Assembly (NCBI GenBank): GCA_963695545.1
Contig: OY968796.1
Coordinates: 320,001-384,000 of the forward strand
Reading direction: 5' to 3'
DNA length: 64,000 nt
Origin: Terriglobia bacterium
GTDB lineage: Bacteria > Acidobacteriota > Terriglobia > Acidiferrales > UBA7541
Positions 23,504 to 26,894 of the stretch are shown piece after piece. The position numbers and the translations under genes were made by a program. The notes below the pieces were generated by a model. That model made no database searches and was not told the DNA's origin. It saw only the letters and a program-made list of their open reading frames with translations. Positions within the stretch are counted from its first letter, which is position 1. Every line of letters starts with the position of its first letter.

Positions 23504-23585
23504 TAACCCTTCTAGAATGACCAGTTCTGAGAAATCGCATTTTAACCTCTCTAGAATCAACACTTCTGGCGCAAAGGACTTAAAG
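23504..23585 (+). repeat. Left part of a 39-bp-period degenerate repeat array interrupted by the IS
   Basis: AACCCTTCTAGAATGACCAGTTCTG and AACCTCTCTAGAATCAACACTTCTG; the third unit continues at 26842. Confidence 0.7.
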
Positions 23586-23646
23586 GGCGATTATGTACTT
23601 GACAAAGTAACGCGATTCAGGTAGTCTCTGTGTCAGTGAGGCTGCC

Positions 23647-24630
23647 ATGAACCTGATAGACGTAACCCGAAAGTTCGCCACGAAAGAAGCCTGCAACGAA
23701 TACCTAGCCGCGATGCGCTGGCCGAATGGCGTCACATGCACTCATTGCGGCGTTGTCGGCGACGATCAATTCCGCTCGTTCACCACGCGCGAGACTGAGC
23801 GCAAGCGGTACAGCAAGCGCAAGAAGGCTGTTGTTACGGTCAAGGTTCCGTCGCGCAGCCTGTACGAGTGCAAGGGCTGCGGCTATCAATTCAGCGCGAC
23901 CACGGGCACGGTGTTCCATGATTCGCACTTGCCGCTGGAAAAGTGGTTCATGGCGATTGCGTTGATTCTGGAAGCGAAGAAAGGAATCAGCGCATTGCAG
24001 GTCTGCCGCAATCTTGGAATCCCTGAGAGTAGCTACCGGACGGTCTGGTATCTCTGCCATCGCATCCGTGAAGCCACGCAAGAGACCGGCCTGCTATCCG
24101 GCATCGTTGAGACCGACGAGACCTACCTGACACCGAAGAAGCCGCGCAAGGGAGCGCCGAAAGTGAAGAAAGAAAAACGCGACGTGGTACTTGGCATGAT
24201 CGAGCGCGGCGGCAGGCTGCGAATGGTTCCGATGCGCGACGCGAAGATGGAGATAATCGAACCCATCCTTGCGAAGCACATCGCGCCCGACGCCACGCTA
24301 CAAACTGACGAACACCCGACCTACGCGATAATCGGGAAGCGCCGTTTTCCCGGCAGGCATCGCGCGATCAACCACAGCCAGTCCTACGGGATTGGCGACA
24401 ACACAACCAACTCGATTGAGAATGCGTTCTCGCTGTTAAAGCGCGGCGTCTATGGGACGTTCCACAAGGTCTCGATAAAGCACCTTGGCCGCTATTGCAA
24501 CGAGTTTTCCTACAGGTTCAATCGGCGCGGGAATCAGTCGGAGATGTTCGGCGAGACCGTGAAGGGATTGCTAAACAACGGGCCGCTGCCGCTCAAGAAG
24601 CTGACTGCTTCCGAAACATCGGAGACTTAG
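23647..24630 (+). CDS. IS1595 family transposase
   Basis: RWPNG..CTHC...CKGC zinc ribbon, IVETDETY / LQTDE / TNSIE catalytic motifs, YCNEFSYRFNRR; promoter TTGACA-17-TAGTCT partly inside TIR-L. Confidence 0.95.
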   Translation: MNLIDVTRKFATKEACNEYLAAMRWPNGVTCTHCGVVGDDQFRSFTTRETERKRYSKRKKAVVTVKVPSRSLYECKGCGYQFSATTGTVFHDSHLPLEKWFMAIALILEAKKGISALQVCRNLGIPESSYRTVWYLCHRIREATQETGLLSGIVETDETYLTPKKPRKGAPKVKKEKRDVVLGMIERGGRLRMVPMRDAKMEIIEPILAKHIAPDATLQTDEHPTYAIIGKRRFPGRHRAINHSQSYGIGDNTTNSIENAFSLLKRGVYGTFHKVSIKHLGRYCNEFSYRFNRRGNQSEMFGETVKGLLNNGPLPLKKLTASETSET

Positions 24631-24742
24631 AACCGCGCTTTCCAGAAGTTTTTATCTCGCTCTGTGGCTTTGGCTTTGAGCCGAGCAATGCGGAGAGTAC
24701 CGCGTCGAACTTCTTCTTCTCGACAAGTACCCTTTTCTTCAT
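24593..24742 (-). CDS. 49-aa basic protein convergent with, and overlapping, the transposase 3' end
   Basis: MKKRVLVEKKKFDAVLSALLGSKPKPQSEIKTSGKRGSKSPMFRKQSAS; extended -10 TGCTACGAT 6 nt before ATG (leaderless). Confidence 0.6.
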   Translation of the reverse strand: MKKRVLVEKKKFDAVLSALLGSKPKPQSEIKTSGKRGSKSPMFRKQSAS

Positions 24743-24768
24743 GGGTGAATCGTAGCATAATTGCTTAG

Positions 24769-24860
24769 CGGGGCCGGAAGGATTCGGACCTTCGGAACGT
24801 GCCTTAACACGTTTCGCCCGATTATAAGTCGGGTGCTTTAAACCACTCAGCCACGGCCCC
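24769..24860 (-). tRNA. Atypical class II tRNA: Ser-type body with UAU (Ile/AUA) anticodon, no encoded CCA
   Basis: Acceptor GGGGCCG/CGGCCCC, G73; D-arm GCTGAGTGGTTTAAAGC; anticodon arm CCCGA-CTTATAA-TCGGG; V-arm AACGTGT-TAAG-GCACGTT; T-arm GAAGG-TCCGAAT-CCTTC. Confidence 0.85.
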
Positions 24861-24869
24861 GCTAAGCAA

Positions 24870-24974
24870 TCAAGTGCGCCCGCCCCGGTAAGGAAACGGG
24901 CGCACCTTTGAAAAGTCTAAGTTGAAAACTGGTGGCGGTCGTGCTATAAAGGAGACCAACCGTAGGCGCATCAT
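24870..24974 (-). CDS. Putative 34-aa leader peptide directly upstream of the tRNA(UAU)
   Basis: AAAGGAGG RBS; MMRLRLVSFIARPPPVFNLDFSKVRPFPYRGGRT; Ile10 is encoded by ATA; the stop abuts the tRNA precursor stem. Confidence 0.5.
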   Translation of the reverse strand: MMRLRLVSFIARPPPVFNLDFSKVRPFPYRGGRT

Positions 24975-25021
24975 CGCGCCTCCTTTCGTGAACATCGACA
25001 GTCGCTAAGGGATAGGTTCTA

Positions 25022-25053
25022 GGGGTAAGAGAGGTTACAGCCTCTCTTACCCC
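25022..25053. other. Strong hairpin between the 138-aa ORF and the leader ORF
   Basis: GGGGTAAGAGAGG-TTACAG-CCTCTCTTACCCC, 13-bp perfect stem without a clear U-tract. Confidence 0.6.
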
Positions 25054-25068
25054 GCTTCTACTTATGGT

Positions 25069-25485
25069 TCATTTAGTCCGTTTCCCCACAAACCCTACAG
25101 CAAGAAGGGGCTGTTTGTTTGCTTGAAGGTGCTCTTCGGGTATTTCGGCAACAAACATGGATTCCGATTCGTCCCACTTAGCAGGATACGATCGAGACTC
25201 AGACCGGTCATAGCCGATGTAGTCCATGAAAGTCTTGGCTGAAAATCCAGCACCGTTTCCCTTCTTCCCGTATGCCAAGGCATAAGCGCGGGAGTCTTTC
25301 TTACTGATCGGGCGAACTCCCAACTGATGCTTGGCTGCATCCCACATCAGCAGAACATACTCAACGGCGTCCTTTTCGAGGATTGCCGTGGCAGATTTGT
25401 TGAATGCTAGACGGCCTAGCTTGTTAAAGGTAACATTAGGGCTGCCACTCCGACGTACTCTGCGCGTGAAAATCTCCCAACTCAT
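25069..25485 (-). CDS. Hypothetical 138-aa protein (IS passenger)
   Basis: AGGAGG RBS; upstream TTGACA-19-TATAAT with extended -10 (25554-25524); globular beta-rich composition. Confidence 0.8.
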   Translation of the reverse strand: MSWEIFTRRVRRSGSPNVTFNKLGRLAFNKSATAILEKDAVEYVLLMWDAAKHQLGVRPISKKDSRAYALAYGKKGNGAGFSAKTFMDYIGYDRSESRSYPAKWDESESMFVAEIPEEHLQANKQPLLAVGFVGKRTK

Positions 25486-25743
25486 CGCATTTCCCTCCTA
25501 TTCGAGAAGCATCGACAGAACAGATTATACCATACGTTACATGAGAATTGTCAATAGCAAACTTCAGAAACTCCCATTGTTTCCGGTAGCCTCAGAATAC
25601 TGCAAGCCTATCTCGCGTGTCCCTTGGTACGCGGTGAGTTTGACTTGGGAATAGTATGCCGGATACTTTCGTCTTGAAATACATTGCCGCAATCTTTTAT
25701 ATTGCGTTAGTGTAGCTATCGTAATCTGCTGATGAGAAACAAG

Positions 25744-25888: not shown

Positions 25889-26773
25889 ATGCACCTTTGC
25901 TACATAGATGAAAGTGGCGTGCCTGAACTAAATCAAGGGACGAGTCATTTTGTGCTGCTCGGTCTATCTATCGAGGCGTGGGATTGGAGGGGTCAAGATC
26001 GCGCGGTTTCGGTCGTTAAGCGAAAGTTTGGGCTGTACGGCGCAGAGATTCATACCGGATGGATGACTAGGCGTTATCTTGAGCAGGAGAGAATCCCAAA
26101 TTTTCAATCGCTGGATCGAACTGCTCGCCAAACACAGGTAAGAAAAGAACGGGACGCGCAACTCATCAAAGAGGATGCTCTTAAGGGAAGCAAGGCCGCC
26201 AGAGAACTGCGGAAGAGCTACCGCAAGTCAGATACCTATATTCATTTGACCCTAGGGGAACGAAGGAATTGCCTACGGGAGCTTGCTGATTTGATTGGTG
26301 GGTGGGGAAACGCGCGACTTTTCTGTCATGCAATTGATAAACGCGCCTTTGGGTCAACGCCGCCTGCTAACCCACCACGAGAAGAAGCGTTCACCCACGT
26401 AGTCAGTCGCTTTGAGCGATACCTTTCGGATATAGGAGACCCGCGAACGATCGGACTCCTTGCTCATGACCATGACGATACGTCCGCAGACAGAATGACC
26501 CAATTGATGCGCCAGTTTCATTCGAGCGGAACAATGTGGACTGCCATCACAAGAATTATCGAAACCCCGTTTTTCGTGGACAGTAAATTGACGGTTGGCG
26601 TTCAGTTGGCGGACTTGTGTGCGTATGCTACTCGCCGCTACTGCGAGAAGGGCGAGACCGATTTATTTGATAGAATTTGGCCCCGATTTAACAGGGTTGG
26701 AACGAGGGTAGTCGGGTTGCGCCATTACGTCGGGGCTCGAAACTGCACCTGCCGGATTTGTACTTCACATTAG
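25889..26773 (+). CDS. DUF3800 domain protein
   Basis: N-terminal YIDESG, EIH motif and C-terminal FVDS...VQLADLCAY, the typical DUF3800 signature. Confidence 0.88.
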   Translation: MHLCYIDESGVPELNQGTSHFVLLGLSIEAWDWRGQDRAVSVVKRKFGLYGAEIHTGWMTRRYLEQERIPNFQSLDRTARQTQVRKERDAQLIKEDALKGSKAARELRKSYRKSDTYIHLTLGERRNCLRELADLIGGWGNARLFCHAIDKRAFGSTPPANPPREEAFTHVVSRFERYLSDIGDPRTIGLLAHDHDDTSADRMTQLMRQFHSSGTMWTAITRIIETPFFVDSKLTVGVQLADLCAYATRRYCEKGETDLFDRIWPRFNRVGTRVVGLRHYVGARNCTCRICTSH

Positions 26774-26841
26774 AAATACCGCCTGCCTGTCACGCCTCAA
26801 TCCTGCCGTTTGGCCGCTACTTTGTCAAATCCATATTCGCC

Positions 26842-26894
26842 CTTAAAGTCATTCAGAATCAGCACTTCTGAAAAACACCCGGGGGGGAGGGGGG
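26842..26894 (+). repeat. Right part of the interrupted repeat array (third unit plus AAAAACACCCGGGGGGGAGGGGGG tail)
   Basis: AAGTCATTCAGAATCAGCACTTCTG restores the 39-bp period when the IS and one TSD copy are removed. Confidence 0.7.

Follow-up and report, generated by a model that had tools for sequence, protein, structure and literature searches.

In the precursor tRNAs considered by Zhu et al. (2022; PMC9433436), one to three pairs between the 5′ leader and the 3′ RCCA sequence extend the acceptor stem and have to be unwound, and two such pairs lower kcat/Km of E. coli RNase P 13-fold. An acceptor stem extended by leader and trailer is also found in mascRNA, the tRNA-like element that follows upstream RNA at the 3′ end of MALAT1, a eukaryotic system in which the extension, which has a bulged A, promotes RNase P cleavage (Torabi et al., 2021; PMC8457004). 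The allo-tRNA(UAU)s listed from soil Acidobacteria have a long variable arm, a 12-bp acceptor/T branch of 8/4 or 9/3 pairs and a transposon and toxin–antitoxin gene neighbourhood, and they are suspected of being something other than ordinary translation tRNAs (Mukai et al., 2017; PMC5389517).

We have analysed a tRNA(UAU) gene in a stretch of 64,000 nt of DNA from a Terriglobia bacterium (the window, to which all positions refer unless a genome is named). Like the precursors of Zhu et al. (2022; PMC9433436), its transcript has an acceptor stem lengthened by pairing of the leader with the 3′ end, but the added pairs number 10, all perfect (12 with wobble), and run on beyond the 3′ end, and the tRNA reads CUA after G73, not CCA. 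As in mascRNA the tRNA follows upstream RNA and its acceptor stem is extended by leader and trailer, but the helix is perfect, with no bulge at the cleavage site. With the allo-tRNA(UAU)s it shares the anticodon, the long variable arm, an acidobacterial soil origin, the type of gene neighbourhood and the suspicion of a non-ordinary function, and the T-loop UCCGAAU of its family recurs in one of those listed; it differs from them in its discriminator, which is G73 and not the U73 of the listed allo-tRNA(UAU), in the acceptor/T branch of its family, which is 7/5 (8/5 in 12 members) with the support of covariation, and in its long leader–trailer helix, of which the part of that report on which we draw makes no mention (Mukai et al., 2017; PMC5389517). 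Our literature search for IS1595, tRNA and Acidobacteria together found no relevant paper. Our current view, which we hold as the probable one rather than as a firm conclusion, is that the helix is real and confined to one copy of a tRNA(UAU) carried by a transposon, that it is likely to be a local change in two unconstrained linkers, and that it would seal the ends of the precursor without being a conserved regulatory device.

The tRNA(UAU) gene and its transposon

The tRNA(UAU) gene (24768..24860, minus strand) is a class-II gene of 93 nt that was called as tRNA-Ile(tat) by ARAGORN, matches the Rfam tRNA model (RF00005; 60.8 bits, E = 4.9e-12, gathering score 29) and is supported by covariation in its family; every stem of the cloverleaf body is intact, and the body has a long variable arm and G73. 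Relatives were drawn from a genome search at the family level (matches in 20 of 200 genomes, three of these 20 without an ARAGORN tRNA), from species genomes scanned with a pattern (12 loci, in Acidobacteriota/Terriglobia MAGs apart from one labelled Syntrophobacteraceae) and from metagenome contigs (120 loci). The 138 pattern matches reduced to 113 unique ones, of which 110, the window counted, have flanks of at least 25 nt; the family alignment comprises 101 of the 110, nine members with large insertions being left out, and in it the tRNA stems are 93–99.8% paired with compensatory changes.

The canonical elongator tRNA has U54-U55-C56 in its T-loop and a 3′ CCA that is encoded or added. The T-loop of tRNA(UAU), which has C at position 55 and is near-invariant across the family, lacks this T-psi-C sequence, and the host tRNAs compared have TTCGA or TTCAA at that place. 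GCCA is encoded by 64 of the 110 relatives and CCA by most host tRNA genes; two proteins of the host with a PolyA_pol head are candidates for CCA addition. The gene is present once in its own genome (4.16 Mb in one contig, with 54 tRNA genes by ARAGORN), and when all host tRNAs were compared with it the closest was identical at no more than 61 of 93 positions. Twelve of the 110 family members (e.g. L046, L056, L073 and L121) end in G-T-CCA and have C or T at position −1, which indicates an acceptor stem of 8 bp (8/5, as in tRNA-Sec) and U as the discriminator, most members being 7/5 with G73-CCA. Membership of the allo-tRNAs by an 8/4 or 9/3 branch was considered for the window tRNA and rejected, as it has seven acceptor and five T-stem pairs and an 8/4 arrangement would need a U8–C pair; a second set of allo-tRNA traits was found, namely UAU on a Ser-like class-II body, G73, an adjacent IS1595 transposase and, in the relatives, upstream cargo that includes MqsA-like, HicA-like, HTH+Peptidase_M78 and NYN proteins.

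The gene lies within an element of about 3.3 kb and low GC content (0.49–0.56 vs about 0.62), which contains a transposase, a convergent small ORF, tRNA(UAU), a further ORF (ORF138) and a DUF3800 protein. The element is bounded by a pair of 39-nt terminal inverted repeats, the left one (23574..23612) being 85% complementary to the right one (26815..26853). Its 327-aa transposase (23647..24630, plus strand) has the DDE_Tnp_IS1595 domain (Pfam, 3.8e-32) with an N-terminal zinc ribbon (Zn_ribbon_IS1595, 6.1e-10) that is characteristic of the IS1595 family (NCBIfam transpos_IS1595, 8.8e-52). Elements of this family make an 8-bp target duplication; no clean duplication of that length was seen at the element ends, and only imperfect direct repeats of 19–26 nt were found outside them. 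Imperfect 26-nt direct repeats (65–81% identical) occur just outside the ends, at 23504–23568 (left, two copies) and 26845–26870 (right, one copy).

When 160 related loci were searched by tblastn, the transposase was found in 103 and the small ORF in 122, but ORF138 (138 aa, 25069..25485, minus strand; no Pfam, NCBIfam or PADLOC match) in three and the DUF3800 protein (294 aa, 25889..26773, plus strand; Pfam 9.6e-17) in only two. Furthermore, some ten other loci have a motif resembling the right-end repeat, 640–1440 nt upstream of their tRNA. These counts and the position of the upstream repeat imply that the tRNA is a conserved internal part of the transposon and that the cargo upstream of it is variable; the DUF3800 protein, not being co-conserved, was rejected as a partner of the tRNA. 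Upstream cargo ORFs in the relatives encode HARE-HTH, HTH+Peptidase_M78, MqsA-like, HicA-like and NYN proteins, and 37 of 110 loci have an ORF of at least 30 codons that ends no more than 15 nt from the 5′ end of the tRNA, a proximity that implies co-transcription with upstream genes.

The host genome has a second copy of the left part of the element (G000:C1:2003344-2004436, locus L032), consisting of a left repeat, at which its similarity to the window starts, a transposase (92.7% at the amino acid level) and the small ORF with its ATA kept. The similarity ends at 24739, three bases inside the small-ORF start (ATG, 24742–24740), and neither a tRNA nor a right repeat was found with this copy.

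The extended acceptor helix and its occurrence

On the minus strand the leader arm (24861..24870; A24870 to C24861, positions −10 to −1) reads ATTGCTTAGC and is followed by the acceptor strand GGGGCCG (24860–24854), and on the other side of the tRNA the 3′ acceptor strand CGGCCCC (24776–24770) is followed by the 3′ arm (24760..24769), which consists of G73 (24769) and CTAAGCAAT (24768–24760). As ATTGCTTAGC is the exact reverse complement of G73 plus CTAAGCAAT, there are 10 Watson–Crick pairs past the acceptor stem, and the inverted-repeat search returned arms of 17 nt each (24760–24776 and 24854–24870), 100% complementary, with 77 nt between them. RNAfold retained the cloverleaf on top of a 19-bp stalk, in which the 17 perfect pairs are joined by a G·U and a U–A pair between 24871..24872 and 24758–24759 (MFE −66.6 kcal/mol, z = −4.55, an equally good fold being obtained in none of 200 shuffles). 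The preliminary description of the locus was thus exact, in coordinates and letters, as to a perfect 10-bp acceptor extension within a 17-bp helix that takes in G73, and also as to an adjoining leader-ORF stop with its last base at 24870: the TGA occupies 24872–24870, and the UGA provides the first three bases of the stalk.

The 10-bp extension is real and non-random. Of the 54 host tRNAs called by ARAGORN, 53 have zero to three extra pairs beyond the acceptor stem, as against 12 in tRNA(UAU). Among the 110 family members, contiguous extra pairs with G·U allowed number none in 16, one in 36, two in 42 and three in 14, and the outliers are L115 with six and the window with 12; when only Watson–Crick pairs are counted, the window has 10 and no other member more than three. 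The pairing energy of the 16-nt flanks is −20.8 kcal/mol in the window, compared with a mean of −5.57 (sd 3.0, n = 440) for mismatched leader/trailer combinations, and no mismatched control out of 440 reached −20 kcal/mol or below.

Comparison within the family indicates that the long extension is probably private to the window copy and near-identical strains. In the 101-member alignment, pairing over the 12 proposed positions of the extension is 46.6% vs 35–45% in slid controls, and the only positions commonly paired are −1:73 (89/100) and −2:74 (60/101). There was no family-wide excess of leader–trailer pairing (mean −5.96 kcal/mol for real vs −5.57 for mismatched pairs, Mann–Whitney p = 0.18), and such pairing was on this result rejected as a family feature. 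Pairs at or below −14 kcal/mol make up 3/110 of the real set vs 2/440 of the null, and a few relatives have interrupted leader–trailer helices (9 bp with one bulge in L059, a 7-bp distal helix in L137). The leader/acceptor junction pattern TTGCTTAGCGGGGYCGTSGC gave no match elsewhere in 185,579 species-representative genomes. Covariation of the extension among homologues, which had been proposed as a check on the idea of a locked precursor, is not seen, for 109 of the 110 members are without the long extension and, beyond the −1 and −2 pairs, their pairing is at background level; absence of the extension from homologues, named in the preliminary description as an observation that would tell against that idea, is therefore what we find.

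The letters of the helix are unchanged in soil DNA contigs. A DNA contig from run X5 of another study (24702–24915) derives from a somewhat divergent strain, with two substitutions and a 3-nt insertion in 24702–24759, and has no change in 24760–24915; an intact helix in such a strain counts against the reading that we favour.

Maturation and origin of the extended precursor

Given that two leader–RCCA pairs already cost RNase P 13-fold in the experiments of Zhu et al. (2022; PMC9433436), we infer that an extension of 10–12 bp would be a strong hindrance to RNase P, to trimming of the 3′ end and to the addition of CCA. The trailer would be transcribed directly after the 3′ acceptor strand, and the 19-bp stalk would form before RNase P acts; stacked coaxially on the T stem it would amount to about 24 bp and would make the RNase P site, G73 and the 3′ end inaccessible to RNase P itself, to 3′ exonucleases and to the CCA-adding enzyme. 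The window copy would then give mostly leader-attached RNA, and any maturation would proceed through a double-strand cut by the RNase III of the host or through a transient opening of the helix, with trimming and the addition of CCA thereafter. The preliminary description went further and saw in the tRNA an inactive precursor that is stored until triggered. The part of this proposal that stands is that the helix buries the discriminator as well as the RNase P site and the 3′ end, and a sealed, poorly matured precursor is plausible, if weakly supported; a regulated trigger is unsupported. As for the DUF3800 protein, put forward as possibly a dedicated maturation nuclease, its presence in only two of 160 loci and the lack of any nuclease assignment in Pfam, NCBIfam and PADLOC leave that role unsupported. 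If the helix truly blocks maturation, it is a natural extreme of the leader–3′ end pairing that has otherwise been studied with one to three pairs, and would be a ready substrate for examining how a sealed pre-tRNA is dealt with by RNase P, by RNase III and in 3′ trimming.

Metatranscriptome contigs, one from each of two runs of one study, cover 24782–24954 (no differences) and 24778–25011 (two differences); both cross the leader–tRNA junction with the leader letters of the window, and they include at least 94 and 151 nt of leader, respectively, with the first ~80 nt of the tRNA. Being assembled from a single study, these contigs carry no ends, strand or amounts and may include DNA carry-over; they suggest that a leader-bearing tRNA molecule is present in an RNA library, a true transcript and DNA carry-over both being possible. 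In the same material (runs X6 and X7) no contig was found over the small ORF or the transposase; for contigs from one study neither this result nor the point at which the two contigs stop (24778 and 24782) carries weight.

With regard to the origin of the helix, the window and the homologous leader of L107 differ at 9 of the 12 helix positions and are identical in the five bases just upstream, and part of the window trailer (..CAATTATGCTACGATTCAC) is also present in L077. The element is otherwise intact, with a transposase of 327 aa, a small ORF of 49 aa and tRNA stems that are all paired. We infer from these observations, together with the private occurrence of the helix and the hypervariability of the linkers, that a local mutational origin is favoured. 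Quasi-palindrome template switching makes an imperfect inverted repeat perfect in one event, classically over spacers of a few bases; templated conversion of this kind, seeded by the inverted repeat of the acceptor stem, would be the simplest single-event route in the window, although the spacer here is 77 nt of folded tRNA. Stepwise selection would be the alternative, and as a perfect 10-bp match of two linkers of 8–10 nt is too improbable for drift, selection for the helix in the window lineage is possible.

Among other explanations, the stalk might be a processing site for RNase III, both strands being cut so that a near-mature tRNA is excised from a transcript of cargo, tRNA and small ORF. 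RNase III requires a perfect RNA duplex of about 20 bp, roughly two turns, and the stalks formed by leader and trailer in rRNA operons are long perfect duplexes of this kind that flank a stable RNA, are cut by RNase III and are conserved across species. The length and perfection of the window stalk (19 bp, or about 24 bp when the coaxial T stem is counted), an RNase III gene in the host and the co-transcription implied by upstream ORFs ending close to the tRNA in 37 of 110 loci are in keeping with such a function. The window stalk is, however, confined to a single copy, in contrast to those of rRNA operons, the relatives do without it, and the RNA contigs span the presumed cut region in both runs, so that some RNA is uncut; we consider this function unlikely.

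The leader offers another way in which the stalk might be opened. Its ORF has 41 codons (24870..24995, minus strand), with an internal AUGAUG (24974–24969) behind the Shine–Dalgarno sequence AAAGGAGG and its UGA at the helix base, and encodes the core peptide M(M)RLRLVSF-I-ARPPPVFN, in which Ile is AUA (24947–24945). Between this core and the tRNA is a GC-rich hairpin (24874..24905, minus strand), which related leaders also have, in a different sequence. The peptide is kept in seven of the 110 loci (the window, L107, L041, L105, L159, L008 and L042), with differences in the ARPPP codons that are all synonymous and with ATA (five loci), CTA (one) or TTA (one) as the codon before them. Its sequence has the look of a leader for stalling or attenuation, placed ahead of a tRNA gene. 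In a ribosome-dependent attenuator, a translated short ORF with regulatory codons lies upstream of a terminator/antiterminator pair; in 24500–25600 we found no intrinsic or T-run terminator on the minus strand and no sigma-70-like promoter, and for want of any terminator-like site there the stalk was rejected as an intrinsic terminator.

On these grounds it could be argued that ribosomes ending the AUA/RPPP leader peptide at the UGA open the 12-bp extension, so that the trailer becomes accessible to 3′ trimming and the junction to RNase P, which would make maturation of tRNA(UAU) dependent on leader translation. The strong Shine–Dalgarno sequence, the kept core with its synonymous changes, the ATA codon in five of seven leaders, a UGA that forms the first three nucleotides of the helix, the leader-bearing RNA contigs and the intact tRNA body and element all fit this mechanism. 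They have to be set against the presence of the helix in one of the seven leader-peptide loci, the CTA or TTA codon in two of them, and the shifting position of the ORF stop, which falls in the anticodon loop in L107 and right after ..VFN in L008 and is replaced by read-through of the tRNA in L041. Of the seven loci, the window is the only one in which the end of the leader ORF coincides with the base of a long helix, and the earlier suggestion that a ribosome terminating there acts as the trigger finds no counterpart in the other six loci, where the stop position is not conserved. We regard opening of the precursor by translation as decidedly unlikely.

A function at the level of DNA, as a cruciform, a site of recombination or inversion, or a transposon end, appears very improbable: the repeat is perfect in DNA and sits within a mobile element, but the terminal repeats of the transposon are elsewhere (23574–23612 and 26815–26853), DNA and RNA contigs over the locus contain no joints or inversions, and the relative orientation of tRNA and small ORF is constant in the family. 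An integrase att-site duplication was rejected, since tRNA-targeting integrases leave direct repeats and the arms here are inverted. Chance complementarity is scarcely credible, for although the linkers on both sides are hypervariable across the family, eight extra Watson–Crick pairs, with the −1 and −2 pairs granted, are expected at ~1.5e-5 per locus (about 4^-8), and none of the 440 mismatched controls or 53 other host tRNAs comes near the window.

The AUA-rich small ORF and further tRNA-like sequences

Directly downstream of the tRNA is a small basic ORF of 49 aa (MKKRVLVEKKKFDAVLSALL..EIKTSGKRG..; 24593..24742, minus strand), the 3′ end of which overlaps the convergent transposase gene. 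An ORF of 41–52 aa occupies this place in 79 of 110 loci, a further 13 being too short to judge; its codons for the conserved residues F, D, V, P and L vary freely among synonyms, and the family has no match in Pfam, NCBIfam or PADLOC. The conserved Ile codon (24655–24653 in the window) is ATA in 71 of 74 members, and two other Ile columns have ATA in 41/50 and 14/17, so that about 90% of codons at conserved Ile sites are AUA; the host uses ATA for 6.8% of its Ile codons. Among 11 members in which the anticodon is no longer UAU, 10 have no intact small ORF: it is frameshifted, decayed or missing in them, or the contig ends too early to judge. An IS1595-type transposon lineage in soil Acidobacteriota thus carries a non-canonical class-II tRNA(UAU) just upstream of an AUA-rich small ORF, and we consider this module of transposon, tRNA(UAU) and AUA ORF to be more interesting biology than the helix itself. 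It gives a concrete and testable role to ‘inactive’ UAU tRNAs, for which a tie to mobile elements is only guessed at in what we draw on from Mukai et al. (2017; PMC5389517).

One could further imagine a self-sensing circuit, in which the sealed AUA-decoding tRNA would be opened only by ribosomes finishing the leader peptide, with its AUA codon and RPPP stall motif, at the stop at the stalk base, tying the maturation of tRNA(UAU) to AUA-decoding capacity and, via the AUA-rich small ORF, to the activity of the element. We mention this circuit as highly doubtful.

Between the tRNA and the small-ORF start is a conserved trailer motif (TATGCTACGATT.., 24743..24759, minus strand). Its near-palindromic family form, ATGnTAnCAT, lies 2–6 nt after CCA and 6–10 nt before the start of the small ORF, and its sequence and position would suit a −10-like box, an operator or a processing site.

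Other tRNA-like sequences were observed in and around these loci. Within ORF138 a 23-nt stretch, GCCGTGGCAGATTTGTTGAATGC (25385–25407, plus strand), is similar (78%), on the opposite strand, to the 5′ portion of the tRNA family and is either a tRNA remnant or a chance similarity. L010 has an irregular 94-nt ‘Ala’ (tgc) tRNA (1606–1699) directly upstream of tRNA(UAU), and L020 an irregular 86-nt ‘stop’ tRNA with anticodon UUA (1365–1450) directly downstream of it. In the host genome, 2.7 kb from the second IS copy, is a tandem pair of irregular tRNA-like genes (G000:C1:2007148-2007327), one a ‘Gly’ (tcc) of 69 nt and the other an ‘Ile’ (tat) of 97 nt, both without a following CCA; the pair recalls the irregular tRNA polycistrons described by Mukai et al. 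(2017; PMC5389517).
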